Below are positions 1 to 30,150 of a stretch of DNA of 32,893 nucleotides, one piece after another. The stretch is taken from NCBI RefSeq assembly GCF_004010195.1, contig NW_025213411.1, positions 1 through 32,893 on the forward strand, in the 5' to 3' direction. Source of the stretch: Chiloscyllium plagiosum. Its lineage: Eukaryota. The notes below the pieces were generated by a model that made no database searches, had not been told where the DNA came from, and saw only the letters and a program-made list of their open reading frames with translations. A program made the translations under genes and the position numbers. Each line of letters starts with the position of its first letter. The first letter of the stretch is position 1.

Positions 1-97
1 ACACAGACCACAACAGCCCAGAACTCCCAACCTTAAGTCATCCAGCAGCCTCAGCCTCCCAGCAGTGGGAGTACAGGCGCGCGCCACAGCCCCCGGC
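1..97 (-). ncRNA. RN7SL: 7SL/SRP RNA gene copy 1 (5' 97 nt only; the rest lies beyond the window edge)
   Basis: Reverse complement reads GCCGGGGGCTGTGGCGCGCGCCTGTACTCCCACTGCTGGGAGGCTGAGG..., the SRP Alu-domain 5' end; near-identical to the copy at 29853. Confidence 0.9.
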
Positions 98-191
98 GAT
101 CGCGTGGCGCTTCCCTCAGTCGCCTTCAGTTCAAACGGCAGCAACAGCTCCACTGCAGACGTTGCTGCAAAGACAACAGGCGGCTGCAGTT
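98..191 (-). promoter_or_regulatory. Conserved ~94-bp upstream block of 7SL copy 1 (candidate extragenic Pol III promoter)
   Basis: The same block lies directly 5' of copies 1, 3, 4 and 5 even though flanks further out differ between copies 1/5 and 3/4. Function is inferred. Confidence 0.5.
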
Positions 192-451
192 GGTCGTCTG
201 GAGGAATTGGCGCATGAGCTGCTACTTTCCGCCTGACTCTGCCTCTGAGTGAGAGCGTTGATTGCATTTGACAGAATTACTCTGTTGTTTGCTGAATTTC
301 GTCTGTTCAAATGTGCTCTTTCATTGCAGACACAGTCGAGTAGATCAGTGCTGGAGAAAAGCAATTGATTTCGAGTATGGCAACATGAAGATGGTCCGAT
401 ATGATGAATGGACACTTTGCAAATTATGACCAGCTTTGTTGGAGTCTGCAA

Positions 452-3400
452 TCATAGCGTCTTGGAGCCACGGAAACAGACCCTTCGGTCCAACTCGTCA
501 TACCGATCAGACATCCAAACCCAATCTAGTATCCCAACTGCCAGCACGCAGTCCGACTCCCTCTAAAACCTTCCTATCCAGATGCCTTTTAAATGTTGCA
601 ATGGTACGAGCCTTCACCACTTCCTCTGGCAGCTCATTGCATACACGTACCATCCTCTGCATGAAAAAGTTGCCCCTAAGGTCTCTTTTATATCTTTCCC
701 CTCTCTCCTTAAACCTATGCCCTCTAGTTCAGGACTCCCCACCCAGGGAAGACATTTTGTCTATTTATCCAATCCATACCCCTTCTGATTTTATGAACCT
801 CTATCAAGTCACCCCTCAGCATCTGACACTCCAGTGAAAACAACCTCTATTCAATCTCTCCCTATAGCTCAAATTCTCTAACCCTGGCAACATCCTTGTC
901 AATCTTTTCTGAACACTTTCAAGTTTCACAACATCTTTCCAACAGGAAGTAGCCTCACCAATGTCCTGTACAGCTGCAACATGACCTCCCAACTCCTGTA
1001 CTCAGTACTCTTGACCGATGAAGGAATGCATACTAAATGCCTCCTTCACTATTCTATCTACCCGTGACTCCACTTTCAAGCAACTATGAATCTGCACTCC
1101 AATATCTCTTTGTTTTGCAAGACTCCCTCGGACATTAGCATTACGTGTATGAATCCTGCTAAAATTTCCTGTCCCAAAATGCAGCATCTCGCATATATCT
1201 AAATTAAACTCCATTTCCACTTCTCAGCCCATTGGCCCAACTGATCAAGATCCATTGTAATCTGAGGTAACCTTCTTTGCTGTCCACTATACTTCCAAAT
1301 TTTCGTGTCATCAGCAAACTTACTAATTCTATCTCTTATGGTCACATCCAAATCATTTATATAAATGATGAAAATTAGTGGACCCAGCACCGATCCCTGT
1401 GGCACTACACTGGTCACAGTCAGAAAAACAAGCCCTCCACCACCACCCTCTGTATTCTTCCTTTAAGCTGGTTCTGTTTCGAAATGGTTAGTTCTTCCTG
1501 TATTCCATGAGATCTAACCTTGCTAACCAGTCTCCCATGGGGACCCTTTTCGAACACCTTACTGAAGTCCATGTAGATCACACCTACCACTCTACCCTCA
1601 GCAATCCTCTTTGTTACTTCTTCAAAAACCTCTGTCAAGGTTGTGAGACATGATTTTCCACACAAAAAGCCATGTTGACTATCCCGAATCAGTCCTTGCC
1701 TTTCCAAATACATGTGCATCCTGTCCCTCAGGATTCCCTCCAACAACTTGACAACACTGATGTCAGGCTCACCGGTCTATAGTCCCTCAGTGTGTCCTTA
1801 CCACCCTTCTTAAACAGTGGCACAACCTTAGACAACCTCCAGTCTTCCAGCACCTCACCTGTGACAATCAATGATACAAATATCTCAGCAAGGGGCCCAG
1901 GAATCCCTAGCTTCTCACAGTTCTATGGTACACCTGATCAGGTCCTGGGGATTTATCCATTTTCCTGCATTTCAAGATATTCAGCACTTCCTTCTCTGGA
2001 AGATGGACATTCTTCAAGATATCACCATCTATTTCCCTACATTCGCTACCTTCCATGTCCTTTTCCACAGTAAACACTGATGCAAAATACTCATTTAGTA
2101 TCTCCCCCATCTCGAGAGGCTCCATACAAAGGCCGTCTTGCTGATCTTTGAGGGGCCCTATTCTCTCCCTAGTTACCCTTTTGTCCTTAATGTATTTGTA
2201 AAAACCCTTTGGATTCTCCTTAACTCTATTTGCCAAAGCTATATCATGTCCCCTTTTTTCCCTCCTGATTTCCCTCTTAAGTATACTCCTACTGCCTTCA
2301 TACTCTTCTATGGATTCACCCAATGTATCCTGTCTATACCTAACATATGGTTCCTTTTTTTGCTTAACCAAACCCTCAATTTCTTTAGTCATCCAGCATT
2401 CCCTATACCTACCAGCCTTTCTTTTCACCCGAACAGAAATATACTGTTTCCAGACTCTTGTTGATTCATTTCTGAAGGCTTTCCATTTTCCAGCCATCCC
2501 TTTACATGCAAACATCTGCTCCCAATCAGTTTTTAAAAGTTCTTGCGTAATACCATCAAAATTAGCCTTACTCCAATTTAGAACATCAACTTTTAGATCA
2601 GTTCTATCCTTTCCATTGCTATTTTAAAACTAAGAGAATTATGGTTGCTGGCACCAACATGCTCCTGAACTGACACATCAGTCATCTGCCCTGCTTTATT
2701 TCCCAAGAGTAGGTCAAGTTTTGAACCTTCTCTAGTAGGTACATCCACACGTTGAATCAGAAACTTTTCTTGCACACACTTAACAAATTCTTCTCCATCT
2801 GAACCCTTAACACTGTGGCAATCCCAGTTTATGTTTGCAGTTTAATTTATCAATCCTACCTTGCTCGCTGCTTGCCCTGACTGTTTGACTTGCTTCTTTT
2901 CTCAACTGTACTGGTCTCAGATTGATCTCTTTCCTCATTAACAACTTGAGTCCCAGCAACCTCATCCCCCACCTTAACAGTTTCAATCCTCCTGAGCAGC
3001 TCTAGCAAATCTCCCTGCCAGAATATTAGTCCCCTTCCAACTGAAGTGCAATCCTTCCTTCTTGTACAAGTCACCTCTACCCCAGAATGGACTCCAATGA
3101 TCCAAAAATGTGAATCCTTCTCCTATACGCCAGCTCCTTAGCCACGCATTCATCTGCTCTATCTTCCTATTCCTACCCTCACTAGCTGGCAGCACTGGGA
3201 GCTATCCAGGTATTACTATGCTGGGGGGATTTTAAATTCCTGCCTAACTCTCTCTGTTCTCCCTTCAGAAACGCATCCTTTTGCCATCTATGTCATTGGT
3301 TGCAATGTGTACAATGACCTTGAGAACATTCTGCTCCCTCTCTGAGACATCCTTGATCCTGGCACCAGGGAAGCAACACACCATTCTGATCTTTCGCCGC

Positions 3401-3620
3401 TGGCCACAGAAACTTCTATCTGTGCCTCAGAATAGGGAGTCCCCTATCACAATTTACCTCTTGGAACCCGACGTACCCCTCATTGCATTAGAGCCAGTAT
3501 CGATACCAGAAACTTGGCTTCTTGCTACATTTCCCTGAGAATCCATCACCCCCTACATTTTCCAAAACAGCATACTTGTTTGAAATTGGGATAGCCACAG
3601 GAGACCCCTGCACTACCAGG
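452..3620 (-). mobile_element. Degenerate CR1-clade LINE: ORF1 SGNH-esterase remnant plus ORF2 RT, with an internal deletion of most of the endonuclease
   Basis: Minus-strand fragments PQGSVLGPLIFIIYINDL, KFADDTK, DSQHGF..KSCLT, KSPGPD, LDLLLGN..SNHNS; ORF1-like FLDHWSPFWGRGDLYKKEGLHFSWKGTNILAGRF at 2983-3195; many frameshifts. Confidence 0.93.
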
Positions 3621-4107
3621 GATTAATACTCTGGCACTAAATGAGAACACTTACTTAATGTAGGGGACACAAATGATTTTTTATAATAATGCCTTCCCAA
3701 TGTGTGCATTGCAGCAGTAAGAGCGGCTTATTATTTTATTATTTCTTGTTTTATTTCTTGGGAAGCACGGGTACACTGTCTGCTGGTGATATTTCCACCT
3801 CCGTGAGAATAACACCCGAGAAAAACACAAAACATTCGCCTTGTCGATCTGTCAGATTGACGTTCAGATTCCATCAACTGAAACTTCTCAGACTCTACCC
3901 TTCAACCTATGAAGGTATTGTTTTGTTGATTTTCATTGGTTTAATTTGATTGAACTCGTCTTATGAGAAATGTGGAATTAATCCCCTCAAAGCTGCTCAG
4001 TTCAGAACTCTCAGACTCAGTAGTGGTATCAGCATCATATAAGAGTCAGAATCTGAGCAAATAAATAACATCAAAGTGTCCTCTCTATTAACAAAACTAG
4101 ACAACTC

Positions 4108-4369
4108 AATCCCACTGCTGGGAGGTTGAGGCTGCCGGATTTCTTGAGGTTGGGATTTCTGGGCTGTTGTGGTCGGTGCCGATCGGGTGTTCGCACTAAG
4201 ATCAGTGTCCACATGGGAACCTGGGTGTACCAGTTGTGCTGCAGAGGGGTGAACCGGCCCAAGTCGGAAACGGAGCAGGTCAAAGGCCCTGCACTGGTCA
4301 GTAGTGGGATGGCACCTGTGAATAGATGCAGCAGTGCAGCCTGACCAATACAGTGAGACGCAGCCTTCT
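4108..4369 (+). pseudogene. RN7SL: 7SL/SRP RNA pseudogene, copy 2
   Basis: Matches the other copies from AATCCCACTGCTGGGAGG but lacks the first ~25 nt and ~11 nt of helix 6. Helix 8 CCCAGG is changed to CCCAAG, and the terminator CAGTCTTTT to CAGCCTTCT. Confidence 0.88.
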
Positions 4370-5039
4370 ACACCAGTCTTTGCAGTCCAACACAATCTGT
4401 TCCAATCACTGTACAAAATTTTGCTGACTCTTTTCTCCTTCCTTCTAAATTCATTCACTCCTCATTTTATTATCCAATACCACCGTTACAATCTTCATGA
4501 CGAAAACATTTGCAATTTCATACGCATCACAACAAGCAAATCTATCCGAGTTCTCCACATACACAAACGCAAACATTCCTTCCCTCATTCGACCAGTCAA
4601 CAGCCACTTTCCACACCACCGAATACAGCATTTGGTTCTTCAGTACTATTGCTCTCTGCTGTTCTCTGCAGGTACTGTAACCAGAAAATTGCTTCATAAT
4701 CCTGCCAGCCCACGGCCAGTGGAGGGCTCAAAACTCGTCATTCTCGTCCTCATTTCTCCATTGATTCAGTCACCGCTGTTCTGTTGCCATCCCGACCAAA
4801 CAATTAACCTGTTTCTCGTTTTCCGATCTGTATTCATCTTCAGTACGCAGGTGGACTGGGAATATCAGATTGGTAGCGGATCTGATGATGATATTATCCG
4901 AAGTGACCTCTTACATTAAAATGAATTGGATACCCTCCTTCGAGTGTTTTGAGGCATTTGAGATGGTTGTGCAATTTGCTCATTGCTGACATATTTCTCA
5001 ACTCCACTCTCCCGCCTTCTTCTTGTAATCCTAGTATCC

Positions 5040-5520
5040 TTTACTTATCAAGAATCTATCAATCACTATCTTAAATAGTTTCAATAACTTGTCCTCCACA
5101 GCCTTCTGTGGCAGTGGCTTCCACAGATCTACCACCGTCTGGCTGATGAAATTCCTCCTGAACTCAGTTCTAAAGGGCTGCCTCTACACTCTGACTCTAC
5201 ATGCCTGGTCCTAGTCTCTCCTATAATTGAAACATTTTCTCCACGACCACTCTCATGAAGCCTTTGAATATTCAGTAAATTTGAATGAGACCCTGCATCA
5301 TCCTTCTAAAATCCATCGAATACAGATCCAGAGATGCTCCTCAGATGGCAAGCTCTTCATCCCTGGGATCATTCTTGTAAACTTCTTCTGGACCACTTCT
5401 GATGTCAACACATCCTTATTTACGGGGCATAAAACTGCGCACAATACTCCAAATATGGCCTAAACAGCACCTTACACCGCCTCAGCAAGACATCACTGTT
5501 ACTTCATTCTCGTCCTCCTA
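5040..5520 (-). mobile_element. Old CR1/L2-like LINE 3' fragment
   Basis: Reverse complement resembles the RT C-terminal/3' region of the other CR1 copies (ttccacagatctaccacc...gaaattcctcctgaactcag). Confidence 0.6.
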
Positions 5521-5530
5521 AAATCATTTT

Positions 5531-5620
5531 TTGATGAAGGGCTTATGTCCAAAACGTTGATTCTCCTGCTCCTCTGATGCTGCCTGACCTACTGTGCTTT
5601 TCCAGCACTACACTCCTGAC
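5531..5620 (+). repeat. Short interspersed repeat with a degenerate hammerhead-like core (possibly Penelope-derived)
   Basis: tTGATGA-AGGGC-TTAT-GTCC-aAAAC-GTTGA; a sister copy lies at 17335-17450. Confidence 0.5.
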
Positions 5621-5621
5621 T

Positions 5622-6200: not shown

Positions 6201-6367
6201 TCTGAATAGGAGGGGTTTGGATGAATTATATCAATAGGAGGGGTATGGATGGATATGGACCAGGTGCTGGCACATGGAACTACATTGGGTTGGGATATCT
6301 GGTCGGCATGGATGAGTTGGACCAAAGGATCTGTTTCCATTCTGTACATCTCTATGACTGTGACTAT
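6000..6367 (+). mobile_element. 5'-truncated CR1 3' end
   Basis: FPGVGESRTRGHRFK..FFTQSV..WSELPEEVVEAGT, then a 3' UTR ending ctctatgactgtgactatg. Confidence 0.85.
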
Positions 6368-7369: not shown

Positions 7370-10265
7370 GAGTAGGGAGTTCCCAAATCAAGTATCTGAC
7401 ACTGGCAAGCGAGAACCTGGTTTGAAGTGTGTGTACTTCAACGCGAGGAGCATCCAAAATAAAATGGGTGAACTGGCAGCGTGGGTTGGTACCTGGGACT
7501 TCGATGTTGTGGCCATTACGGAGACATGGAGAGATCAGGGATAGGAATGGCTGTTGCAGGTTCCGGAATTCAGATGTTTCAGTAAGAACAGAGAAGATGG
7601 TAAAAGAGGGGGAGGTGTGGCATTGTTGATCAGGGACAATATTACAGTTGTAGAAAGGATGTTTGGTGACTCATTAACTGAAGTAGAATGGGCTGAGGTT
7701 AGAAACAGGAAAGGAGAAGCCACCAAGCTGGGAGTTTTCTATAGGCCTTCAAATAGTCCCAGAGATGTAGAGGAAAGGATAGCAAAGATGATTCTCGATA
7801 GGAGTGAAAGGGGCAGGGTAGTTGTCATGGGGGACTTCAACTATCTAAATATTGACTGGTATCACTACAGTACGAGTACTATAGATGGGTCAGTTTTTGT
7901 CCAGTGTGTGCAGGAGGGCTTCCTGACACAGTATGTAGACAGGCCTACAAGGTGCGAAGCCACTTTAGATTTAGTACTGGGTAACGAGCCTGGCCAGGTG
8001 TTAGATTTGGAAGTAGGTGAGCACTTTGGAGACAGCGATCACAATTCTGTCAAGTTTACTTTAGTGATAGAAAGGGATAGGTGTACTCCACCGAGCAAGA
8101 GTTACAGCTGGGGGAAGGGAAATTACGATGCAATTATGAAAGATTTAGGAAGCGTAGAATGGGGAAGGAAACTGCAGGGGATGAGCACATTAAAAACGTG
8201 GAGCTTATTCAAGGAAAAGCTCCTGTGTGTCCTAAATAAGTATGTATCTGTCAGGCAGGGAGGAAGATATAGAACGTGTGAGCCGTGGTTTACTACGCAA
8301 GTGGAATCCCTGGTCAAGAAGAAGAAGAAGAAGAAGGCTAATGTTAGAACAAGATGTGAAAACTCAATTAGGGCACTTGAGGGTTATAAGGAAGTCAGGA
8401 AAGACCTAAAAAGAGAGCTCAGAAGAGCCAGAGGGGACATGAGAAGTTGTTGGCTGATAGGATCAGGATTAACCCTTAGGCTTTCCATAGGTATGTCAGG
8501 AATAAAAGGATGACGAGAGTTAAATTAGGGCCAATCAAGGATAATAGTGGGAAGTTACGTGCGGAGTCAAAGGAGATAGGGGAAGCACTAAATAAATATT
8601 TTTTGACAGTGTTCACTATAGAAAATGAAAATGTTGGTGAGGAAGATTTCGAGATACTTGCATCTAGATCAGAAGAGATTGAGGTTCACAAGGAAGAGGT
8701 CTTAGAAATACTGCAGAGTGTGAAAATAGACAAGTCCCCTGGGCCGATGGGATCTATCCTAGGATCCTCTGGGAAGCAAGAGAAGAGATTGCCGAGCCTT
8801 TGGCATTGGTCTTCAAATCATCATTGTTTACAGGAGTAGTGCCTGAGGACTGGAGAATAGCAAATGTGGTTCCCTTGTTCAAAAAGGGTAGTAGAGACAA
8901 CCCTGGTCATTACAGACCAGTGAGTCTCACTTCAGTTGTTGGTAAAGTGTTGGAAAACATTATAAGAGAGAGGATTTATAAACGTCTAGAAAAGAATAAT
9001 CTGATCAGGGACAGTCAGCATGGTTTTGTGAAGGGTAGGTCGTGCCTAATGAATTTTATTGAGTTTTTTGACAAACTGACCAAACAGGTAGATGAGAGTA
9101 TACCGGTTGATGTGGTGTGTATGGATTTCAGCGAGGCATTCGATAAGGTTCCCCACAGTAGGCTATTATACAAAATGCGGAGGAATGGGATTGTGGGAGA
9201 CATAGCAGTTTGGATCATTAATGGCTTGCTGAAAGAAGTTTATGGAACATGTTCATCTTGGTGTCCAGTTACTAGCAGCGTACCGCAAGGGTCAGTGTTG
9301 GGTCCACTGCAGTTCGTCATTTTTATAAATGACCTGGATGAAAGGTTAGAAGGGTGGGTTAGTAAATTTGTGGATGACACTAAGGTCGGTGGAGTTGTGA
9401 ATAGTGACGAAGGATGTAGTAGGGTGCAGGGAAACATAGATAGGATGCAGAGCTGGGCTGAGTGGTGTCAAATGGAGTTTAATGTGGAGAAGTGTGAGGT
9501 GATACACTGTGGCCGAAGTAATCAGAATGCAAAGTATTGGGCTAATGGTAAGATTCTTGGTAGTGCAGATGAGCAGAGAGATCTCAGTGTCTATGTACAC
9601 AGATCCCTGAAAGTTGTCACCCAGATTGACAGGGTTGTTAAGAAGGCATACAGTATTTTGGCCTTTATTAATAGAGGGACTGAGTTCCAGAACCAGAAGG
9701 TTATGCTGCCGCTGGACAAAGCTCTGGCACGCCACACTTGGAGTATTGTGTACAGTTCTGGTCACCGCATTATAAGAAAGATGTGGAAGCTTGCGAAAGG
9801 GTGCAGAGGAGATTTACTAGGATGTTGCCTGGTATGGAAGGAATGTCTTACGAGGAAAGGCTGAGGGCCTTGATGCTGTTCTTGTTAGAGAGAAGAAGGT
9901 TGATAGGTGACTTAATAGAGACATACAAGATAATCTGCGGGTTAGATAGGGTGGACAGGGAGAGCCTTTTTTCCAAGTATGGGGACGGCAAACATGAGGG
10001 GACACAACTTTAAAGCGAAGGGAGATAGGTATAAGACAGATGTCAGAGGTAGTTTCTTTACTCAGAGAGTAGTAAGGGTATGGAATGCTTTGCCTGCATC
10101 GGAAGTAGATTCACCAAGTTTAAGTGCATTTAAGTCGTCATTGGACTGGCAAATGGACGTACATGGAATAGTGTCGGTGGGATAGGCTTCAGATTAGTAT
10201 GACAGGGCAGCGCAACATTGAGGGCTGAAGGGCCTGTACTGCGCTGTAACGTTCTATGTTCTATA
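7370..10265 (+). mobile_element. CR1 LINE with near-complete but disrupted ORF2 (APE endonuclease plus RT)
   Basis: LKCVYFNARSI, AITETW, GVFYRP, MGDFN, SDHNS, KSPGP, YRPVSLTS, PQGSVLGP, KFVDDTK; stop at 7542-7544 and several frameshifts; 3' tail gttctatgttctat. Confidence 0.96.
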
Positions 10266-10270
10266 TTCCA

Positions 10271-10385
10271 TATTATTTACTTATCTATGCTATTTAACTA
10301 TGTGATCTGCCTGTATTGCTCACAATACAAAGCTTTTCACTGTGCCTCGGTACATGTGACAATAAATTCAACTCAATTCAATTCA
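10271..10385 (+). mobile_element. Short 3' end of a Rex1/Babar-like LINE
   Basis: Similar to the reverse complement of 18157-18240 (3' end of the Rex-like element); ends in AATAAA plus an (attca)n-like tail. Confidence 0.55.
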
Positions 10386-13680: not shown

Positions 13681-14994
13681 AGTTTAATTTTGACACTGTT
13701 GAAGATTCGTTTGTTACAATATGTGTAGATGTATTGGGGATGAGGTTATAATGATTAATTGTCAGGATACGAATGGATGTGAGAATGAATAAAAGGATGA
13801 GGGAATGTGGGGCGAATGAATGCAGAGTGAACCTGGTGACTGAGACGCTGAATTCAGACACCTTCAGGTCACACGGCAGCCAGAACTCCTCTTCATTGCT
13901 GTAAAGAAAACAGGCTGCTGCAGTTCCTCATCTGGGGCAATTGTTGAAAAGGCTGTGTGTTCTTATGACTAAAAGTGAGGGCAGGGGCTGATTTTGTGCG
14001 ATCGAACAATTGGATAAATGACACCGGTTCTATTATATCGCTCCATTGCTGGCAAGAAAAACGCAGTGCTGTAGTAAATCAGGATTTGTGTTCAATCATG
14101 GAGTGGGAAGCAGCAGGTTGACTGAATGTCAGCGATATTCCAGTTGACTGTGAGAATCGCAGCAGCGAGACACAGACAGCTTTCATCTGACTGATCTCCC
14201 ACGTGGATCAACAGTTGCTGCAAAGTGAGGGTGGCATCGCCCACCTTTGGAAATAATGCATATCAAGGGCGCGATTTTATTTGCGGCCTTCTCTAAGAAC
14301 ATATACCCGGTAGTAAGGATACCGAGAACCGGCTTGTCTTGCGACTTCGACTTAAACCCGGGAATAGCGAATGTTACTGCTCTCCCTCTCTCTCTTTCTC
14401 TCCCGTTCTCGCTGATATTGCAACATGAGGGAACATAAGGTGACAATTGCAGGGTTGCACGATTTTGCGGGAGAGATATTGGCAGAAGTGAATGAATGAA
14501 TGGATGACGCATAGGGGAAGGAGCCGGGAGGCAGCTTGAACGCTTGGTGGTTGCAATGGAAGTTTCGGCAATGTGAGCAATGGAGAATTCGGGCAGGAAA
14601 ATGAAGAGAGTTTTGCGCTCTCTGCTGGCCGTGGCTGGTAGGATTGTGTAAAGTGGAGATTTTCTCAGAACAGTAGGTGCTGTGAACAGCAGGGAGCAGT
14701 AAAAGAGAAGTGAATATTGAGGAGAGGTAGAAAAGGGCAGTGTGGGAAGTGTGAGGTAATGACTGAGAGAGTGTGTTTGGGTGAGTGTGGAGGACTTGTA
14801 GAGAGATTCGATTGTTGTAAAATGTGTGGATTCGTTGTTGACTTTGTAAAGATTGGTTATCGTGAGAGTGAATAAACGCGGCGGGCGTAGGGGGTGGAGG
14901 GAGTGAGTGGGGAAGGAAGGAAGCAGGATTGAGACATCGAGATTGTTTGCACTGATGCCAAAAGATGGGAATGCCGCAAGGTAAAGAATGGTGT

Positions 14995-15292
14995 AAAAGA
15001 CTGCGTCTCACTGTATTGGTCAGGCTGCACTGCTGCATCCATTCACGGGTGCTATCCCACTACTGAGCAGTGCGGGGGCTTTGACCTGCTCCGTTTCCGA
15101 CCTGGGCCGGTTCACCCCTCTGCAGCACACCTGGTACACCCGAGTTCCCCGAGGAGCACCATGTGGACACTGCCCTGAGTGTGGGCACCCAATCGACACA
15201 GACCACAACAGCCCAGAACTCGCAACCTCAAGTCATCCGGCAGCCTCAGCCTCCCAGCAGCGGGATTACAGGCGCGCGCCACAGCCCCCGGC
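14995..15292 (-). ncRNA. RN7SL: 7SL/SRP RNA gene copy 3, full length (298 nt including TTTT)
   Basis: 5' GCCGGG, TGTAA Alu-domain motif, GGAA helix-6 loop, helix 8 CCCAGGTCGGAAACGGAGCAGG, AGTAGTGGGAT, Pol III TTTT terminator. Confidence 0.95.
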
Positions 15293-15386
15293 GATCGCGT
15301 GACGCTTCCCTCAGTTGCCTTCAGTTCAAACGGCAGCAACAGCTCCACTGCAGACATTGCTGCAAAGACAACAGGCGGACGCAGTT
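15293..15386 (-). promoter_or_regulatory. Conserved upstream block of 7SL copy 3
   Basis: Same ~94-bp block as copies 1, 4 and 5; a CR1 3' end begins just beyond it. Confidence 0.5.
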
Positions 15387-15389
15387 TCA

Positions 15390-17210
15390 CAGAGAGTCAT
15401 CGAGTCATGCAGTACGGAAACAAACCCTTCAGCCCAATCACTCTGTGCCGAACATAATCTCAAACTAAACTCGCCGTAGCTCACTGCTACTGGTCCAGAT
15501 CCAAACTTTCCCTTTTCATGTACTTACCCAAATATCTTTTAAACATTGTAACGGTTCCCACATCCATCAGTTCCTCAGGAACTTCATTCCACTGGCTAAC
15601 CCCCACCCTCTATGGAAAAAAAGATGCCCCTCATGGCTTTTTTAACTCTCGCACTTCTGCCCTTAAAATGTGCCCCCTCTCCTGAAATCCCCCATCCGAG
15701 GAAAATAGACAACTATTCTTCAACCTATCTATACCCTTCATTATTTTATTTTATAAACGTCCATAAGGTTTCCACTTGACCTGCTACTCTCCAGTGTAAA
15801 AGGTTCCAGCCTATCGCTTCACTTCACTTCAGCTCTGATGTAGATTCATCGAGATTCATAACACGAGCTTGCTTTCTCTCCATCGACCATTGTGATCTCC
15901 AACACTTTTTGTTTCCTGTTACAGATTCCAGCATCTGCAGTAATTTGTTCCTACCCAGTCTATCCAGCCTTTCTTTACAGCTCAAACTTTCCATACCTGG
16001 CAAAATCCAGTAAACCTCTTCTGAATTCCTCCAGCTTAAAAATATCCTTCCTATTACTTGGCAAACAGAACTGAACACTATATTCCAGAAGATGTCTCAC
16101 CAATGTCCTGCCCAAACACAACGTGACTTTTCAACGCCTATACTCAAAGGATTGAGCAATGAAGGCACAGCGTGCAAAATGTCTCTTGAACCACCCTGTC
16201 TATATGTGATGGAAACTTCAAGGAATGGTGTACCTGAACCCATTGGCCTCTCTGTTCTACCAACACTACTTGTGTATAAACACAACCAAGGCCCTACTTT
16301 TGGTTGTGCCCTATGTGTCCTACCCTTATTTGTTGAACCCAAATGCAATACCTTCCATTTATCCAGACTGAACACCATCTGCCATTTATGAACCCATTGA
16401 CCCATTTGAACAAGGTCCCTTTGTAATCTTAGGAAACTTATTTCACTGGCTACCAAACTAGCACTTTTGGTGCTGTCTGCAAGCTGACTAACCATGCCTT
16501 CTATATGCTCATCCAAATCATTCATATAGATGACAAACAAAAGATTTCCCAGAACCGATCCTTGTGGAACACTCTGGTGACAGGCCTTCAATCTGAAAGC
16601 AACCCTCAACCACTAGTCTCTTACTCCTTCCATTAAGCCAGTAATGCGTCCAATTGGCAAGCTCAATCTTGTGATCTAACTTTACTAATTAGTCTATAAT
16701 GTGGAACCTTGTCAAAAGTTCTACTAAAGTCCAAGTAAACAATATGTACTGCTCTGCCTTCATCAATCGTTTTGGTAACTTCTTCAAAACTGCAAGCATG
16801 TTTGTGAAAAATTAGTTTTCTCACACAAAGCCACGCTGACTATCCCGAATCAATTTATGTCTCTCTAAATGTCCATAAAGTTTATGTTTTAAAATCACCT
16901 CCATCAATCTACCCACAACCAAAGTCAGACAGGCCAATAGTTCCCGGCTTTCTCCTTGAAACATTTCTTTAGCAAATCTTGGAAAAAATGTCTACTCCTA
17001 TCTCTCCAAACCTTTGCTATTCACATATTAACCTACGTGTCTTTTAAACATTGCAATTGTGCTCAACATTCAGGATTTCCTCAGGAAGTTCATTCCACAT
17101 GTGAATCACCTTCTGTGTAAAAATAAATTGCCCCTCATGTCTTTTTAAAATCTCCCTCCTCTCACCTTAAAAATATATCCCCTGTTCTTGAAACTCCCCC
17201 ATCCTAGGTC
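15390..17210 (-). mobile_element. Decayed CR1 fragments (RT and 3' end), interrupted by a short repeat at ~15830-15950
   Basis: VPQGSVLGNLLFVIYMNDL, QLADSTK, LQRDL..WVHKWQMVFSLDK on the minus strand; a second 3'-region fragment at ~17000-17210. Confidence 0.85.
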
Positions 17211-20210: not shown

Positions 20211-21376
20211 TTTCTGTGCTTGGTCCTCAAGTTTCAGATTCTGCTTATAAACTGGGAGCAGGAACACAGTGCTGTGATCTGATTTTCAAAAGTGTATTTG
20301 TGGTATGGGGTGGTAGGCATTGTTGGTGGTTCAGTAGCAATGGTTCAACATCTGTTGCGGAAGCTTCTATGTTACATGCTCTTGTGACTGTAAGGGAAGG
20401 CAGTCGCATGATTTTGTGTGATAGAACCCTTGAACAAATTACACCTCTGCTACTATATTGCTCCATTCCAGCAATGGCCAGGATATGTTTTCAATATTAG
20501 AGTGGGAAGCAGAAGACTGAATACCGGTGGCATTCAAGTGGAGTGCGAGAATATCAGCAGAGAGGAACAGAGAACTTTCTTCTAACCGATCTGCCACTTG
20601 GACCACCGCCAGTTGTAAAGTGAGGCCAGTAAGGCCCCCGTTCTTGGAAATAACGTGCATCTCGGCTGCTATTATTTCTCGCTGTCTTGTGTAAGACCTC
20701 ATACTCGGAAGTGAGGAGATGGAAAAATGGGCTGTTGGTCAACTTGATTGTGGCATCATGGAAATGCCAGTCTTGCTGCCTCTTTCTTTCTCTCTCGTAA
20801 CTACAGCATGAGAGAAGTTAGAATGAGAGTTCAAGTGTTGCACAGTTTTGCAGGAGAATCATTTGCCGAAGTGAATGAATGAATGGATGACGGAGAGGGG
20901 AAAGAGCCGGGAGGCAGCTTGAACTCTTGGTGGTTGCAATGGAAGTTTCGGCAATGTGAGCAATGGAGAATTCGGGCAGGAAAATGCAGAGAGTTTTGCG
21001 CTCTCTGCTGGCCGTGGCTGGTAGGATTGTGTAAAGTGGAGATTTTCTCAGAACAGTAGGTGCTGTGAACAGCAGGGAGCAGTAAAAGAGAAGTGAATAT
21101 TGAGGAGAGGGAGAAAAGGGCAGTGTGGGAAGTGTGAGGTAATGACTGAGAGAGTGTGTTTGGGTGAATGTGGAGGACTTGTAGAGAGATTCGGTTGTTG
21201 TAAAATGTGTGGATTTGTTGTGACTTTGTAAAGATTGGTTATCGTGAGAGTGAATAAACGTGGCGGGCGTAGGGGGTGGAGGGAGTGAGTGGGGAAGGAA
21301 GGAAGCAGGATTGAGACATCGAGATTGTTTGCACTGATGGCAAAAGATGGGAATGCCGCAAGGTAAAGAATGGTGT

Positions 21377-21674
21377 AAAAGACTGCGTCTCACTGTATTG
21401 GTCAGGCTGCACTGCTGCATCCATTCACAGGTGCTATCCCACTACTGAGCAGTGCGGGGGCTTTGACCTGCTCCGTTTCCGACCTGGGCCGGTTCACCTC
21501 TCTGCAGCACACCTGGTACACCTGAGTTCCCCGAGGAGCACCATGTGGACACTGCCTTGAGTGTGGGCACCCGATCGATACAGACCTCAACAGCTCAGAA
21601 CTCCCAACCTCAAGTCATCCGGCAGCCTCAGCCTCTCAGCAGCGGGATTACAGGCGCGCGCCACAGCCCCCGGC
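21377..21674 (-). ncRNA. RN7SL: 7SL/SRP RNA gene copy 4, full length, with clustered G>A changes (possibly impaired)
   Basis: Same landmarks as copy 3, helix 8 and TTTT intact; seven private substitutions in 21499-21636. Confidence 0.92.
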
Positions 21675-21768
21675 GATCGCGTGACGCTTCCCTCAGTTGC
21701 CTTCAGTTCAAACGGCAGCAACAGCTCCACTGCAGACATTGCTGCAAAGACAACAGGCGGACGCAGTT
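21675..21768 (-). promoter_or_regulatory. Conserved upstream block of 7SL copy 4
   Basis: Matches 15293-15386 with no difference seen by eye. Confidence 0.5.
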
Positions 21769-21771
21769 TCA

Positions 21772-24478
21772 CAGAGAGTCATCGAGTCATGCAGTACGGA
21801 AACAAACCCTTCAGCCCAACCACTCTGTGCCGAACATAATCTCAAACTAAACTCGCCGTAGCTCACTGCTCCTGGTCCAGATCCAAACTTTCCCTTTTCA
21901 TGTACTTACCCAAATATCTTTTAAACAGTGTATCGGTGCCCACATCCATCAGTTCCTCAGGAACTTCATTCCACTGGCTAACCCCCACCCTCTATGGAAA
22001 AAAAGATGCCCCTCATGTCTTTTTTAACTCTCGCACTTCTGCCCTTAAAATGTGCCCCCTCTCCTGAAATCCCCCATCCGAGGAAAAAGACAACTACTCT
22101 TCATCCTATCTATACCCTTCATTATTTTATTTTATAAACGTCCATAAGGTTTCCACTTGACCTGCTACTCTCCAGTGTAAAAGGTTCCAGCCTATCGCTT
22201 CACTTCACTTCAGCTCTGATGTAGATTCATCGAGATTCATAACACGAGCTTGCTTTCTCTCCATCGACCATTGTGATCTCCAACACTTTTTGTTTCCTGT
22301 TACAGATTCCAGCATCTGCAGTAATTTGTTCCTACCCAGTCTATCCAGCCTTTCTTTACAGCTCAAACTTTCCATACCTGGCAAAATCCAGTAAACCTCT
22401 TCTGAATTCCTCCAGCTTAAAAATATCCTTCCTATTACTTGGCAAACAGAACTGAACACTATATTCCAGAAGATGTCTCACCAATGTCCTGCCCAAACAC
22501 AACGTGACTTTTCAACGCCTATACTCAAAGGATTTGAGCAATGAGGCACAGCGTGCAAAATGTCTCTTGAACCACCCTGTCTATATGTGATGGAAACTTC
22601 AAGGAATGGTGTACCTGAACCCAATGGCCTCTCTGTTCTACCAACACTACTTGTGTATAAACACAACCAAGGCCCTACTTTTTATTAATGACTTGGATGA
22701 GGGAGTCGAAGGGTGGGTCTGTAAATTTGCAGATGATACGAAGATTGGTGGAGTTTTGGATTGTGAGGAGGGCTGTTGTCGGCTGCAAAGAGACTTAGAT
22801 ATGATGCAGAGCTGGGCTGAGGAGTGGCAGATGGAGTTCAACCCTGCCAAGTGTGAGGTTGTCCATTTTGGAAAGACAAATAAGAAAGCGGAATACTGGG
22901 TTAACGGTAGGGTTCTTAGTGAGGTGGAGGAACAGAGGGATCTTGGGGCCTGTGTTCATAGATCTTTGAAAGTTGCCACTCAGGTGGATTGAGCTTGTAA
23001 GAAGGCCTATGGTGTATTAGCGTTCATTAGCAGAGGGATTGAATTCAAGAGTCGTGAAATGATGTTGCAACTGTACAGGACTTTGGTTAGGCCACATTTG
23101 GAGTACTGTGTGCAGTTCTGGTCGCATCACTTTAAGAAAGATGTGGAAGCTTTGGAGAGGGTGCAGAGAAGATTTACCAGGATGTTGCCTGGAATGGAGA
23201 ATAGGTCGTACGAGGATAGGTTGAGAGTGCTAGGCCTTTTCTCGTTGAACGGCGATGGATGAGGGGTGACTTGATAGAGGTTTATAAGATGATCAGAGGA
23301 ATAGATAGAGTAGACAGTCAGAAACTTTTTCCCCGGGTGCAACAGAGTGTTACAAGGGGACATAAATTTAAGGTGAAGGGTGGCAGATATAGGGGAGATG
23401 TCAGTCGTGGGCTCTTTACCCAGAGAGTGGTGTGGGCATGGAATGCGCTGCCTGTGGGAGTGGTAGAGTCAGAATCTTTGGTGACCTTTAAGCCGCAATT
23501 GGATAGATACATGGATGGGTGCTTAAGCTAGGACAAATGTTTGGCACAACATCATGGGCCGAAGGGCCTGTTCTGTGCTGTATTGTTCTATGTTCTATGT
23601 TCTATGTTTTCGTTGTCCCCTATGGGTCCTACCCTTATTTGTTGAACCCAAATGCAATATCTTCCATTTATCCAGACTTAACACCATCTGCCATTTATGA
23701 ACCCATTGACCCATTTGAACAAGATCCCTTTGTAATCTTAGGAAACCTATTTCACTGGCTACTACGCTACCACTTTTGGTACTGTCTGCAAGCTGACTAA
23801 CCATGCCTTCTATTTGCTCATCCAAATCATTCATATAGATGACAAACAAAAGATTACCCAGAACCGATCCTTGTGGAACACTCTGGTGACAGGCCTTCAA
23901 TCTGAAAGCACCCCTCAACCATTAGTCTCTTTCTCCTGCCATTAAGCCAATAATGCATCCAATTGGCAAGCTCAATCTTGTGACCTAACTTTACTAATTA
24001 GTCTATAATGTGGAACCTTGTCAAAAGTTCTACTAAAGTCCAAGTAAACAATATCTACTGTTCTGCCTTCATCAATCGTTTTGGTAACTTTTTCAAAACT
24101 GCAAGCATGTTTGTGAGAAATTATTTCTCTCACACAAAGCCACGCTGACTATCCCGAATCAATTTATGTCTCTCTAAATGTCCATAAAGTTTATGTTTTA
24201 AAATCACCTCCATCAATCTACCCACAACCAAAGTCAGACAGGCCAATAGTTCCCGGCTTTCTCCTTACAACATTTCTTAAGCAAATCTAGGAAAAAATGT
24301 CTACTCCTATCTCTCCAAACCTTTGCTATTCATATATTTACCTCGGTGTCTTTTAAACATTGCAATTGTGCTCAACATTCAGGATTTCCTCAGGAAGTTC
24401 ATTCCACATGTGAATCACCTTCTGTGTAAAAATAAATTGCCCCTCATGTCTTTTTAAAATCTCCCTCCTCTCGTCTTA
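21772..24478 (-). mobile_element. Duplicated decayed CR1 fragments (paralog of 15390-17170), split by a younger CR1
   Basis: VPQGSVLGNLLFVIYMNDL at 23595-23918; colinear with the first copy. Confidence 0.85.
22681..23606 (+). mobile_element. Younger 5'-truncated CR1 insertion
   Basis: FINDLDEGVEGWVCKFADDTK..LVRPHLEYCVQFW..; (ttctatg)3 tail; empty site at ~16298 (ctacttttggttgt); possible TTTT target duplication. Confidence 0.95.
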
Positions 24479-24721
24479 AAAATCCTTTCAAGGAGCTGAC
24501 TTTCACCCGCAGAGAAAAAAACGTCAACGCCGCTGGCGTTTCCCCTCGCCGCACAGCTCGACTTTCTTCCCACGCTGCACCGTGAAATGGCGGGACCGGC
24601 CTGTCGCTCACGCTTGAAGCTTTGATCGGGACCACTCTCAGGGAGGCGGCGTCCGCCAACGGTATTCCGTCTGCTGCAGACCAGCCGAGTGAGAGGTTGC
24701 ACTTGCGATTTTAAAAGGAAG

Positions 24722-24794
24722 TGGAGAATGCGGGTATCAATCCAGCTACCTCTCGCATACAGAGCAAGTGCTCTACCATTTGAGCTAATCCCCC
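24722..24794 (-). tRNA. tRNA-Ala-type gene, probable pseudogene (anticodon position reads TGT)
   Basis: Reverse complement GGGGGATTAGCTCAAATGGTAGAGCACTTGCTCTGTATGCGAGAGGTAGCTGGATTGATACCCGCATTCTCCA (73 nt): vertebrate tRNA-Ala(AGC)-like body with G3:U70 and TTTT 6 nt downstream; U33>C, T-stem mismatch and damaged B box. Confidence 0.88.
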
Positions 24795-25128
24795 AGTCGG
24801 CCAGCTGGCACTCTTTACACTCCTTCCACAGGGGATATTGAGCAATCATGCTCCGGGATGTGCAGGAAATCCTCTCACCCATCGGACGGCTGAGACCAAA
24901 CATTGCTGATGCCTGTCTCAATGAAACAACCAACTTGTTGGAGGAGCAGCAGCGGCAGCTGGTGGACTCAGGCGAGGCTGAAGGTCTCATGAACGAGGAA
25001 AGACGTGCTGTGCATATGGCAATTGCTGATTGGAGGTCGAAACTACTTCAACCACGGCGCAGCCACCACGAGCGTGAGCTGATGTTGCAGGGCCCCGCCT
25101 GACTGATAGAAGACTTCATTTAGTTGCA

Positions 25129-26508
25129 GTGGATGACGTCGCCGTTTTCTGCTAGGATCCGCTGTCCGTGCGCAGACTCATGTGCATATGTGACCAGTTT
25201 GAACGGGCCTTGGGGGCCAAGGTCAACCGAGGCAAGAGCGAGGCCATGCTCTTCGGGAACTGGGCCGACCAATCCTCGATCCTCTTCACCGTCAGGACCG
25301 ACCACTGAAGGTGCTGGGTATTTGGTTCGGAGGGGCTGGGGCATATTCCAAGTCTTGAGAGGAGTGTATCAGCAAAGTGAGGCAGAAACTGGGCAGATGG
25401 AAGCTACGGTCACTCTCCATTGCGGGAAAAAACCTGGTCATCAGGTGTGAGGCACTGTCATTGCTGTTATACGTGGCACAGGTCTGGCCTATTCCCAGAA
25501 CCTGTGCCGCTGCAGTCACCCGGGCCATCTTCCAGTTTATATGGAGGTCAAAGATGGACCGGGTCCGAAGGGACTCGCTGTACAAAGATCTGGGCAATGG
25601 GTGAAAAAATACACCCAATGCCACCCTCACCATGTTGGCCACCCTTGTGTGTGGCTGCATCAAACTGTGCGTGGATCCCCGGTACGCAAACACCAAGTGT
25701 CACCAGGTACTGAGGTTCTACCTGTCCCTGGTGTTGCGAAAGATGGGCCTGGCCTCGCTGCCNNNNNNNNNNNNNNNNNNNNNNNNNNNNNNNNNNNNNN
25801 NNNNNNNNNNNNNNNNNNNNNNNNNNNNNNNNNNNNNNNNNNNNNNNNNNNNNNNNNNNNNNNNNNNNNNNNNNNNNNNNNNNNNNNNNNNNNNNNNNNN
25901 NNNNNNNNNNNNNNNNNNNNNNNNNNNNNNNNNNNNNNNNNNNNNNNNNNNNNNNNNNNNNNNNNNNNNNNNNNNNNNNNNNNNNNNNNNNNNNNNNNNN
26001 NNNNNNNNNNNNNNNNNNNNNNNNNNNNNNNNNNNNNNNNNNNNNNNNNNTCTACGGCCTGTTCCCCGGGACACACACCGAGACGAACATCAACTGTGCC
26101 TGGAGGATCATCAGCTCGGTGAAGGACGCTCTCTGGGCGGTCCGAAACCTGTTGATCTTCCAGCTGAAGGAGTTGACCCCAACTGAGTGTTGCAGGCTGG
26201 CACATTCCATGGTCCAGGACTACGTGTTGAGGGACGCGCTGAAGCTTGGGGCAGCTGCCGCTAAGGCGCGGTGGGGAAAGACCACCGTGTAACATCTGCC
26301 TGCCTAAGAAGAACAGAGGGCCCGCGCAGTCATTTGGGCCCTGCTGACGCCTCAGCTAAAAATGTAATTGTACAGACCTGTAAATAGGAATGATTACTCT
26401 GTTTTCAGTATGCAAACAAATTGAATGTTTACATATGTATGGCATGTCCAGTTGTACAGATCATCAAAGTATTTTATGAATAAAGCATATTTTTGAAATG
26501 AAAAAAAA
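25129..26508 (+). mobile_element. Tx1/L1-clade LINE, 5'-truncated: RT C-half, 3' UTR and poly(A)
   Basis: DDVAVFC..GAKVNRGKSE..LKVLGIWF, WKLRSLSIAGKNLVI, FQFIWRSKMDRVRR, KDALWAVRNLLIF; stop 26290-26292; AATAAA 26479-26484; A8 26501-26508; includes an N run. Confidence 0.9.
25763..26050. other. N run (assembly gap or masked sequence)
   Basis: 288 Ns. Confidence 1.
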
Positions 26509-28500
26509 GCGGATGTGTACTGCCTGCAGGATTTCCCTGCGGCAGGCTATTTCGATGTGACCTTCAGGAGCGTGAAGAATTGCGAGCAGCTCCTGAAGGT
26601 CTTCAAGGAGAAGGAAGGGGAACCTCTATTCTCCATCTTGTCAGCGGTCCCGTTGTGTTTGCTTCCTGCGCAGAGGAGTCGGATTGTAACAATCCAGATG
26701 TACAACCCTCACGTCCCAGCAGCAGATGTTCTGACCTTCCTGAGAAGATATGTCCAGGTCGAAGGAGAGAGTACTGATGTGGTCAATCATTTCAGGATCT
26801 GGACCAGCAAACGACAGGTCAGGGTAACTCTGAGGGTTGATGCCAGTGGGAACATCCTCCTCCCACCCTCCAGCTTTGCCATCGGAGGAAGCAGAGGTTA
26901 CCTGACATACGCAGGGCAGCCGAAAGTGTGCCGAACCTGCGGGAGGTCAGGCCACATGGCGGCGGATTGTAAGGCGACTGTCTGCTGAAACTGCAAGCAG
27001 GAAGGCCACCCGACCAAGGAATGTAAGGAGGCCAAGAACTGTAATCTGTGCGGAGAGGCGGGCCACATTTACAAGGCCTGCCCAAGACAAGGGGCTGCCA
27101 CCTACGCACAGATGGCTGGAGGTGGCAACACAAGCCGTGGACCGCCCAAGACCAGCAAGGTACCACAAAACAGCACGGGAACGGTGTCTGGAGGCACCCA
27201 GAAGGTAGGGCAGGCTGTAGCGGAGCAGATGGCAGACAGAGGGGAGAGGCAGCAGCCGATTCAAGCTCCTTCAAGACAGACGGAGGAAATGGAAGAGGAG
27301 GGACCAAAGGAGGCAGAGGATTGGATTACTGTCAAAAGCAGGAAGAGGAAATCTCCCAAAGCCACCCAGCAAAGGGGGAAGCGACACCTACACGACGAGG
27401 ATACAGGCAGCTCTTCCGACGGTGAGGGCGGGCGCAAGGAGGGTCGTCACCAAAGGAAGAGACAGAGCGACGCGGGGAAATAGGAGGGCAGCACCGCCCA
27501 AACAGGGAAAGACAATCTCTCTGAGGGGATGGGTAAAGGCCTCCCCCGAACCAGTGAGAACCAAGAGGTACCCACCGGCCCACAGCTCCAGGTAACTGGG
27601 AGCAGCGGTCCTGTGACAGCCCCACTGTCAGATGGAGAACTGGACTATGCGGACCCTGGGCCTGACCCGAAGACACCAGAGCGGGGAAATGGCTTCAGCG
27701 TGGAGCCGGACAGCTACCTCAGCCCTGGGAGAGTCCAGCAGTTTGCCGTCACCATGGGGATGCACACAGCTACCCCAGAGGGGCAAGACCAGCAGCAAAT
27801 GGACACTGTTAACCTNNNNNNNNNNNNNNNNNNNNNNNNNNNNNNNNNNNNNNNNNNNNNNNNNNNNNNNNNNNNNNNNNNNNNNNNNNNNNNNNNNNNN
27901 NNNNNNNNNNNNNNNNNNNNNNNNNNNNNNNNNNNNNNNNNNNNNNNNNNNNNNNNNNNNNNNNNNNNNNNNNNNNNNNNNNNNNNNNNNNNNNNNNNNN
28001 NNNNNNNNNNNNNNNNNNNNNNNNNNNNNNNNNNNNNNNNNNNNNNNNNNNNNNNNNNNNNNNNNNNNNNNNNNNNNNNNNNNNNNNNNNNNNNNNNNNN
28101 NNNNNNNNNNNNNNNNNNNNNNNNNNNNNNNNNNNNNNNNNNNNNNNNNNNNNNNNNNNNNNNNNNNNNNNNNNNNNNNNNGTAGATACACCTGGTCATG
28201 GGCAGACGGGTCTATCCGCTCCAGGATAGATTACCTGTTTGTGTTCCGTACGCTCTCGGTCAGATCCACCGACGTCAAGCCGGTGTTCTTCTCTGACCAC
28301 TGCCTCCTGCTGGCCGACTGTCACCTACAGGACGAGCAGTGGGCTGGTAAGGGAACGTGGAAGCTGAACACAAAGCTGTTGACCCCAGGAAACATTGAGG
28401 AGCTCAAGAGGGACTACGCAGGTTGGAGAACTGTGAAGCCCCTCTTTGAGTCCCTAACGGACTGGTGGGAAACAGAAAAAGGGAACATCAAGAGGTTCTT
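26509..28500 (+). mobile_element. Second Tx1-like LINE: ORF1 with three CCHC zinc knuckles plus ORF2 endonuclease; truncated at both ends
   Basis: DVYCLQDFP..FDVTF; CRTCGRSGHMAADC, C*NCKQEGHPTKEC, CNLCGEAGHIYKAC; after the gap YTWS..SRIDYLF..FFSDHC..GTWKLNTKLL; premature stops at 26986 and 27481. Confidence 0.9.
27816..28181. other. N run (assembly gap or masked sequence)
   Basis: 366 Ns. Confidence 1.
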
Positions 28501-28501
28501 G

Positions 28502-29505
28502 ATGTCCGAGGGAGTCTTGCAAAACAAAGAGATATTGGAGTGCAGATTCATAGCTGCTTGAAAGTGGAGTCACGGGTAGATAGGATAGTGAAGGAGGCAT
28601 TTAGTATGCATTCCTTCTTCGGTCAAGAGTACTGAGTACAGGAGTTGGGAGGTCATGTTGCAGCTGTACAGGACATTGGTGAGGCCACTTCCTGTTGGAA
28701 AGATATTGTGAAACTTGAAAGGGTTCAGAAAAGATTGACAAGGATGTTGCCAGGGTTGGAGGATTTGAGCTATAGAGAGAGGTTGAATAGAGGTTGTTTT
28801 CACTGGAGTGTCAGAGGCTGAGGGGTGACCTTATAGAGGTTCATAAAATCATAAAGGGTATGGATTGGATAAATAGACAAAATGTCTTCCCTGGGTGGGG
28901 AGTCCTGAACTAGATTAGATTAGATTACTTACAGTGTGGAAACAGGTCCTTCGGCCAAACAAGTCCACACCGCCCCGCCGAAGCACAACCCACCCATACC
29001 CCTACATTTACCCCTTACCTAACACTACGGGCAATTTAGTATGGCCAATTCACCTGGCCCTACACATCTTTGTGACTATGGGAGGAAACCAGAGCACCCA
29101 GAAGAAACTCATGCAAACACGGGGAGAATGTGCAAAGTCCACACAGTCAGTCGCTTGAGGCGGGAATTGAACGCAGGTCTCTGGCGCTGTGAGGCAGCAG
29201 TGCTAACCACTGTGCCACCGTGCCACCCACTAGATGGCATAGGTTTAAGGTGAGAGGGGAAAGATATAAAAGAGACCTTAGGGGCAACTTTTTCATGCAG
29301 AGGATGGTATGTGTATGCAATGAGCTGCCAGAGGAAGTGGTGGAGGCTCGTACGATTGCAACATTTAAAAGGCATCTGGATAGGAAGGTTTTAGAGGGAG
29401 TCGGACTGCGTGCTGGCAGTTGGGTACTAGATTGGGTTTGGATGTCTGATCGGCATGGACGAGTTGGACGGAAGGGTCTGTTTCCGTGGCTCCAAGGTGC
29501 TATGA
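28502..29505 (+). mobile_element. CR1 3' fragment, the duplicated paralog of ~452-1135
   Basis: Reverse-complement match; HRFKVRGERYKRDLRGNFF..NELPEEVVEA. Confidence 0.9.
28915..29228 (-). mobile_element. Full-length tRNA-derived V-SINE (HE1-like)
   Basis: Minus strand has A box (TGGCACAGTGG), B box (GTTCAATTCC), V-domain-like core (TTTGCACATTCTCCCCGTG..GGTTTCCTCCCA), CR1-like 3' end and (AATCT)n tail; TSD actaga(t) at 28909 and 29229. Confidence 0.9.
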
Positions 29506-29758
29506 TTGCAGACTCCAACAAAGCTGGTCATAATTTGCAAAGTGTCCATTCATCATATCGGAACATCTTCATGTTGCCATACTCGAAATCAATTGCTTTT
29601 CTCCAGCACTGATCTACTCGACTGTGTCTGCAATGAAAGAGCACATTTGGACAAATTCAGCAAACGACAGTCATTCTGCCAAATGCAATCAACGCTCTCA
29701 CTCAGAGGCAGAGTAAGGCGGAAAGTAGCAGCTCATGCGCCAATTCCTCCAGACGACC

Positions 29759-29852
29759 AACTGCAGCCGCCTGTTGTCTTTGCAGCAATGTCTGCAGTGG
29801 AGCTGTTGCTGCCGTTTGAACTGAAGGCAACTGAGGGAAGCGCCACGCGATC
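29759..29852 (+). promoter_or_regulatory. Conserved upstream block of 7SL copy 5
   Basis: ...CTGCAGTGGAGCTGTTGCTGCCGTTTGAACTGAAGGCAACTGAGGGAAGCGCCACGCGATC|GCCGGG. Confidence 0.5.
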
Positions 29853-30150
29853 GCCGGGGCCTGCGGCGCGCGCCTGTACTCCCGCTGCTGGGAGGCTGAG
29901 GCTGCCGGATGACTTTAGGTTGGGAGTTCTGGGCTGTTGTGGTCTGTGTCGATCGGGTGCCCACACTCAGGGCAGTGTCCACATGGTGCTCCTCGGGGAA
30001 CTCGGGTGTACCAGGTGTGCTGCAGAGGGGTGAACCGGCCCAGGTCGGAAACGGAGCAGGTCAAAGCCCCCGCACTGCTCAGTAGTGGGATAGCACCTGT
30101 GAATGGATGCAGCAGTGCAGCCTGACCAATACAGTGAGACGCAGTCTTTT
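29853..30150 (+). ncRNA. RN7SL: 7SL/SRP RNA gene copy 5, full length (298 nt)
   Basis: GCCGGGGCCTGCGGCGCGCGCCTGTAC... helix 8 GGCCCAGGTCGGAAACGGAGCAGGTC ... GAGACGCAGTCTTTT. Confidence 0.95.

Follow-up and report, generated by a model that had tools for sequence, protein, structure and literature searches.

This report concerns an entire unplaced scaffold of Chiloscyllium plagiosum (NW_025213411.1 of assembly GCF_004010195.1; 32,893 nucleotides (nt), called the window below; genome size 3.56 Gb), which carries five copies of a divergent gene for 7SL RNA, the RNA within the SRP (signal recognition particle). The genome contains two distinct types of 7SL RNA, which guides secreted proteins to the endoplasmic reticulum: type A, with two genes, and the clustered type B, to which the window copies belong. 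We consider it probable, with some reserve, that the window lies in a DNA-duplicated cluster of a second 7SL RNA (type B). This RNA was likely made in the germ line and likely functions as the SRP RNA of the oocyte and early embryo, the two type-A genes likely supplying the body.

The genome was searched with a window copy, with the Rfam model Metazoa_SRP (gathering score 70) and with two parts of type A. Type A is represented by two genes on C3, 1.38 Mb apart, which differ at one base, score 267 and 266 bits and have about 100 nt of upstream sequence in common (95% identity). Type B comprises 15 cluster copies with gene sequence: five in the window, four on C16 (33.31-33.34 Mb) and six on five small contigs; eight are full length, two are cut by a contig end and five are broken. 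Seven of the eight full copies score 211-232 bits and the eighth 195, against the cut-off of 70. The two types differ at 68 of 298 bases (23%; 77% identity) and separate with 100/99 support in a tree of 20 rows. A preliminary description of this DNA had proposed that a genome-wide search with the same model, together with a tree, could reveal a separate and more canonical 7SL locus beside the divergent clade of the window, and this is what was obtained; the contrary possibility, that the window sequence is the only 7SL type, is contradicted by the pair on C3. No publication on two 7SL types in sharks was found in the open-access literature.

The C16 cluster stands, with six gaps inside, in the interval from the last exons of PIK3C2A to those of RPS13. 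The C2-domain exons of PIK3C2A are about 17 kb to the left of its first type-B gene; RPS13, with two intronic SNORD14, is about 8 kb to the right of the last one (L045:4759-7394). HSPA8 was considered as the SNORD14 host here and rejected, the host being RPS13. Because the flanks are in common, we infer that the window is part of this C16 cluster. The exact number of type-B copies is uncertain in both directions (gaps may hide copies, and some small contigs may be alleles); the existence of a second 7SL type is not. As to type A, the gene C3a and an E2F-family gene stand head-to-head, C3a being inside a CpG island (L047:2780-5896; C3:18.71 Mb), and the two likely have a common promoter region. 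Synteny of the C3 locus with RPS29, which we take to be the neighbour of a human 7SL gene, was considered and fails: the RPS29 matches are on C10 and C11, not on C3.

Type B evolved under structural constraint. Type A forms 97 and type B 96 of the 120 pairs of the Rfam structure; if the same 68 changes are placed at random, 79.4 +/- 3.5 pairs are kept (maximum 93 in 2000). Two-sided compensatory swaps between the types number 11, compared with 2.1 under random placement (maximum 7) and with 4.9 when the positions are fixed and the letters are random (maximum 10 in 5000). The differences fall in the Alu 5' domain (7 of 45 bases), helix 5 (24 of 81 and 19 of 79), helix 6 (14 of 40), helix 7 (3 of 7) and helix 8, the SRP54 site, where a single one is found in 46 nt. 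The Alu UGU turn (SRP9/14), the loop-loop bases, the helix-6 GNAR loop (SRP19) and the 5f loop are identical in A and in the B majority; helix 3 of B has lost two pairs.

The bases that contact SRP68/72 (the helix-7 U-turn adenines and the 5e-loop) are conserved in the family and not kept in B. Type B carries U110C, C242A, A172G and A173C, all four positions being canonical in A; the human numbering was obtained with a +2 offset fitted to the residues named in PMC5224484 and not by alignment with the human sequence. According to that paper, engineered U110C weakens SRP72 binding twofold, R576/W577 of SRP72 are clamped between C111 and C242, and F108 of SRP68 stacks on A172; in PMC4615810, helix 7 is described as a T-loop anchored to helix 5. 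For SRP68 and SRP72 the genome gave a single locus each and no second gene, in a search that covered these two SRP proteins only and had a stricter first step for SRP68; the matched exons are nearly identical to the mammalian proteins, the SRP72 motif included. Judging from the sequence, the changed contacts mark B as a variant; a loss of function does not follow.

The genes for 7SL RNA are driven by internal and upstream elements (PMC10498592). Upstream of type A there are GC boxes and, near -40, a word like the cyclic-AMP response element (CRE). In human 7SL, an ATF/CRE upstream site is active. Type B has none of these GC boxes, CRE-like word or CpG-island context; its own 90-nt upstream element is unrelated to that of A and is 90-100% identical among the copies, which farther out have replaced sequence or are about 70-80% alike. 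The element matches 19 places: 14 are close matches at cluster copies (one adjoining a gap), and the other five are decayed and stand in sequence of the cluster type. Of the internal boxes given in PMC7245038, both types retain box B unchanged; in box A there are three base differences between them. The observed/expected CpG ratio is 0.90 in A and 0.54 in B; the low value is a weak hint that B may be methylated at some stage.

Transcription of type B is suggested by its retro-copies. The 7SL pieces outside both loci were assigned by diagnostic bases, and the counts from the searches are lower bounds: there are 13 dispersed places, eight of B type, four of A type and one insertion with both. 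The votes for B include 43:1, 23:3, 18:1, 17:1 and 14:3, with 35:9 and 24:12 in old copies and a weak 8:0; none of the 13 places carries B flanks. The B copy at C1:9.085 Mb begins precisely at +1 and breaks off at nt 180, with a 7-8-nt target-site duplication; the one on C31 begins at +2. Three B copies end at the terminator; one of them (C1:20.16 Mb) continues with six A and a 214-nt tail, presumably Penelope-like, all inside a 16-18-nt target-site duplication. The A-type copy on C35, taken as a control, begins at +1 and extends as far as the A gene's second T-run. Convincing target-site duplications were found in two of the 12 dispersed copies tested, the others having only words of chance length. 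A same-strand head of a short interspersed element (SINE), presumably tRNA-headed, lies within about 30 nt downstream in 4 of the 12 (three B and one A, one of them by construction, as the query source); the background is 13 heads in 280,125 bases, or 0.0007 per site.

The insertion with both types (C15:50.464 Mb) suggests that both RNAs may have been present in one cell when it arose. The B retro-copies leave the B stem at several depths (support 85-91), which argues that B has been present over a long time. Since retro-copies are inherited, their RNA must have been present in the germ line or early embryo, and the dispersed copies imply that type B was transcribed in the germ line. The preliminary description had allowed for the case that no copy is transcribed in any tissue; for the same reason, it now appears unlikely that none ever was.

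The window itself was described as holding five 7SL paralogs in mixed orientations, which is correct in that three are complete, one is cut by the contig end and one is old and broken. As a count of genes it has to be amended: four are type-B gene copies (one cut), and the copy at 4108-4369 is not a gene, having no nt 1-25 and no upstream flank, an 11-nt deletion in helix 6 and TTCT at its end. The sole common flank of this copy is a second, older downstream flank, with 378 of 475 aligned bases alike with C56914. The three full copies end in TTTT, share flanks of about 90 nt on the upstream and several hundred nt on the downstream side, and sit within duplicated segments of at most 2.3 kb with 84-97% identity; a poly(A) tail is found in none of the window copies. 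The proposal that they spread by duplication of DNA and not by retroposition is borne out for the window copies by these flanks and segments. The window has two N gaps, the first at 25763, and four of the five copies precede it; since their orientations (-, +, -, -) occur within one gap-free piece, the mixed orientation is real and was not made by scaffolding.

Two full B copies, from different contigs, are identical to the family majority; the others are 2-9 changes away from it (3, 4 and 7 for the full copies of the window), which suggests that a sound master was copied recently. Where the downstream flanks of copies agree at only about 72%, the gene is 96-99% and the proximal upstream sequence 90-95% identical; such gene identity despite these flanks needs selection or conversion confined to the gene and promoter. 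There are also relic units, at 31197-31423 (flank score 69, versus 32 +/- 5 and a maximum of 44 after shuffling) and elsewhere, in which the upstream element is joined to the downstream flank and the gene is gone. The turnover pattern fits birth-and-death and also a family that has lately started to decay.

In the mechanism that we propose, RNA polymerase III would transcribe type B as far as the TTTT, using the upstream element peculiar to this type and an altered internal box A. The transcript would adopt an SRP RNA-like fold; its binding of SRP9/14, SRP19 and SRP54 would be normal, and that of the single SRP68/72 somewhat changed. The demand of a large oocyte would be covered by the many copies, and the family would be kept by birth and death, a sound master seeding new copies and single copies drifting and breaking.

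A number of results weigh against an egg-type SRP RNA of this kind. Type B has lost bases conserved in the family and scores 35 bits below A, and its minimum free energy (-124.6) is not separated from that of randomised sequences (-124.2 +/- 6.2). The 29 private changes of the eight full copies break pairs as by chance (15 versus 14.4 +/- 2.4) and hit the sites invariant between A and B at the chance rate (24 versus 22.4); 5 of the 15 cluster copies are broken. The retro-copies mark the germ line or early embryo and do not distinguish oocyte from testis or embryo; type A has them too (8 versus 4 is not significant), and the youngest of B are already 4-7% different. As to RNA, 22 sequencing runs were listed, of which 11 contain part of the gene, one of these being recorded as RNA. 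Four runs were compared with the 3' end and flank of one type-B copy only, a comparison informative on the locus and not on expression: two poly(A) single-cell runs from a single sample, of which 2% and 6% were covered, gave no reads, and one run guessed to be RNA gave no contigs. The only match is a contig of uncertain kind that runs through the flank, i.e. DNA, and confirms the locus in an independent data set. Finally, a second 5S rRNA type was found in none of the 30 copies examined, among the matches listed (at least 47).

Several findings would agree with type B having once been a functional germ-line 7SL whose family is now silent or decaying: the private changes are neutral for pairing, broken copies and units without a gene occur, no RNA reads were seen in the runs examined, box A is altered and four SRP68/72 contact bases are changed. 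We nevertheless hold this to be quite improbable, given the two copies identical to the majority and a somewhat spared helix 8 (one of the 29 private changes, with 4.5 expected; Poisson about 0.06); neutral drift of single copies is, moreover, expected in a redundant family. It is also unlikely, to a lesser degree, that the expression of type B as a second SRP RNA is broad, or takes in all dividing cells or the testis, without being special to the egg. The retro-copies require only presence in the germ line or early embryo, and both types have them, once in one insertion; furthermore, maternal-type RNAs are reported from testis in a zebrafish preprint (bioRxiv 10.1101/869651), which also considers that they might be specific to proliferation. 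Against broad expression, B has neither the GC boxes and CRE-like word of A nor its CpG-island setting, and in the same preprint the clustered zebrafish type is nearly absent from adult tissue.

That type B acts outside the SRP, or is the source gene for a small, selfish retroposon derived from 7SL, seems to us very improbable. Its helix 7 loop and 5e-loop bases are changed and some B pieces are joined to SINE and Penelope-like tails, and the 7SL-headed SINEs of hagfish arose in this way (PMC7245038); against this, the whole S domain is kept with compensatory swaps, helix 8 is almost unchanged, and the B pieces found dispersed number only eight and vary from one to the next in their ends and partners. 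We can give hardly any credence to the cluster being mostly an assembly artefact made of alleles or repeated contigs of one or two genes. The assembly is indeed fragmented, with gaps in the cluster, and some small contigs are 95-97% identical to C16 stretches; however, four copies stand in one gap-free piece with different flanks, the long matches between the window and C16 are only 82-88% identical, and the independent run contains the gene end with its flank. An egg-type SRP RNA remains the reading that we prefer.

Table 1. Coordinates of the type-B copies, their flanking elements and related features (window positions unless another sequence is named; the bits are Metazoa_SRP scores)
Feature	Position	Strand	Bits	Remark
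Full-length type-B 7SL gene	14995..15292	-	223.9	3 private changes; TTTT terminator
Full-length type-B 7SL gene	21377..21674	-	211.5	7 private changes, 4 of them breaking model pairs
Full-length type-B 7SL gene	29853..30150	+	219.5	4 private changes, 3 of them in the Alu 5' domain
Type-B gene, 5' third, truncated by contig end	1..97	-		95% identical
Old broken B-lineage copy	4108..4369	+	162.6 (match 4096-4369)	7 type-A states (likely ancestral)
2.3-kb duplicated segment	13958..16301	.		90.5% identity to 20377-22682
Second copy of the 2.3-kb segment	20377..22682	.		pairs with 13958-16301
Downstream flank, class alpha	14593..14994	-		common to 9 cluster places, no match elsewhere
Type-B upstream element (about -94..-1)	15293..15386	-		90-100% identity among copies; unrelated to type-A upstream
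Type-B upstream element	21675..21768	-		sequence match
Type-B upstream element	29748..29852	+		sequence match
Type-B upstream element of the contig-end-cut copy	98..202	-		sequence match
Relic unit: decayed upstream element fused to decayed downstream flank, gene deleted	31197..31423	+		flank score
Decayed upstream element of second relic unit	13861..13935	-		sequence match
Mirror-image insertion, both types	L018:1096-1678 (C15:50.464 Mb)			B nt 121-226 joined to A nt 235-298 and inverted A nt 28-132

The remaining features of the window are as follows. A decayed tRNA-like sequence (24722-24794, minus strand; Rfam 41.7 bits, not called by ARAGORN) lies in a CpG-rich patch. Pieces of a Tx1/L1-type element occupy 25150-28502, where a 3' end is directly followed by ORF1 (first open reading frame, with ZCCHC3-like and zinc-knuckle domains); both N gaps lie inside these pieces. 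Elements of the Tx1/L1 type can be site-specific. Broken copies of a CR1-type long interspersed element occur at 7545-9864 and 600-3600, with endonuclease and reverse transcriptase domains at 7545-9861.

Two further small RNAs were surveyed in the genome. RNase P RNA occurs in two types, with 239 of 293 aligned bases alike (82%), at C15:44412773, C18:34848401, C82180, C11; C95523, C1:16918057 and C1:16867185 (L085-L096). The copies of type 2 have a common upstream flank with a TATA-like word. Type 1 is represented only by copies with unrelated flanks (at least eight, likely retro-copies), its source gene not being among the 15 matches; dispersed copies exist of both types. As to 5S rRNA, 29 of the 30 examined copies have the same 45-nt upstream flank, though on many chromosomes (L097-L126), which could reflect a mobilised unit or the scattered placement of one array.

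The observation is of interest beyond this species. Nearly all of the evidence for the dual translation system comes from zebrafish, and its SRP RNA part from a single preprint; a much more divergent second example from a cartilaginous fish would mean that the system either is general or has evolved repeatedly. The maternal question is directly testable, as the 68 diagnostic bases allow A and B RNAs to be told apart easily in any total-RNA library, and retro-copies provide a record of germ-line expression that needs no RNA data. Type B also carries naturally the change that weakened SRP72 binding in vitro (PMC5224484), with three more at the SRP68/72 contacts. It is tempting, although we regard it as doubtful, to propose that cartilaginous fishes evolved a germ-line translation kit of their own, in which an SRP RNA with retuned SRP68/72 contacts gives one protein set two particles with different ribosome contact or arrest strength. 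If this were true, vertebrates with yolky eggs would have evolved egg-type SRP RNAs repeatedly, and type B would represent a selected, naturally occurring mutant of the SRP regulatory site.

Compared with metazoan SRP RNA (RF00017) and the human S domain, type B retains the full 298-nt match, the Alu UGU turn, the loop-loop bases, the GNAR loop, helix 8 and the equivalents of A231/G232 in the 5f loop; it differs from the human S-domain structures (PMC5224484, PMC4615810) in the four substitutions listed above. Chimeras of RNA and retroelements, 7SL included, are known (PMC13174262). The dispersed pieces resemble these and the known small-RNA retropseudogenes in being free of flanks, in having termini at the RNA ends and, for some, in being joined to retroelements; the likeness covers the dispersed copies only, the window copies being DNA duplicates. 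The partners here are a tRNA-headed SINE and a Penelope-like tail, not L1. In contrast to the 7SL-derived SINE (SINE1), the window copies have common flanks and a complete S domain, and the eight dispersed B pieces have unlike ends.

The closest parallel is zebrafish. There, according to the preprint (bioRxiv 10.1101/869651), the egg form of SRP RNA, dominant in eggs and replaced during embryogenesis, comes from 67 clustered copies and the adult form from a single gene located 448 bp from emc10; the two are 7% apart. Clustered maternal SRP RNA is therefore not new as an idea. By its layout, type B appears to be similar to this dual system: one type is numerous and clustered (15 B copies here) and the other solitary (two A genes), a solitary gene adjoins the start of a protein gene, the types differ in both the Alu and S domains, there is a second RNase P RNA type about 80% alike, and no separate protein partners were found (here for SRP68 and SRP72). 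The systems differ in divergence (23% here versus about 7%), in copy number (at least 15 here versus 67), in the neighbour (an E2F gene here, emc10 there) and in expression, which was measured there and is implied by retro-copies alone here. The difference between the two zebrafish types is far smaller than that between A and B, and this suggests that the two dual systems are probably of separate origin. What is new here is the threefold greater divergence, the changed SRP68/72 contacts and the record of retro-copies.

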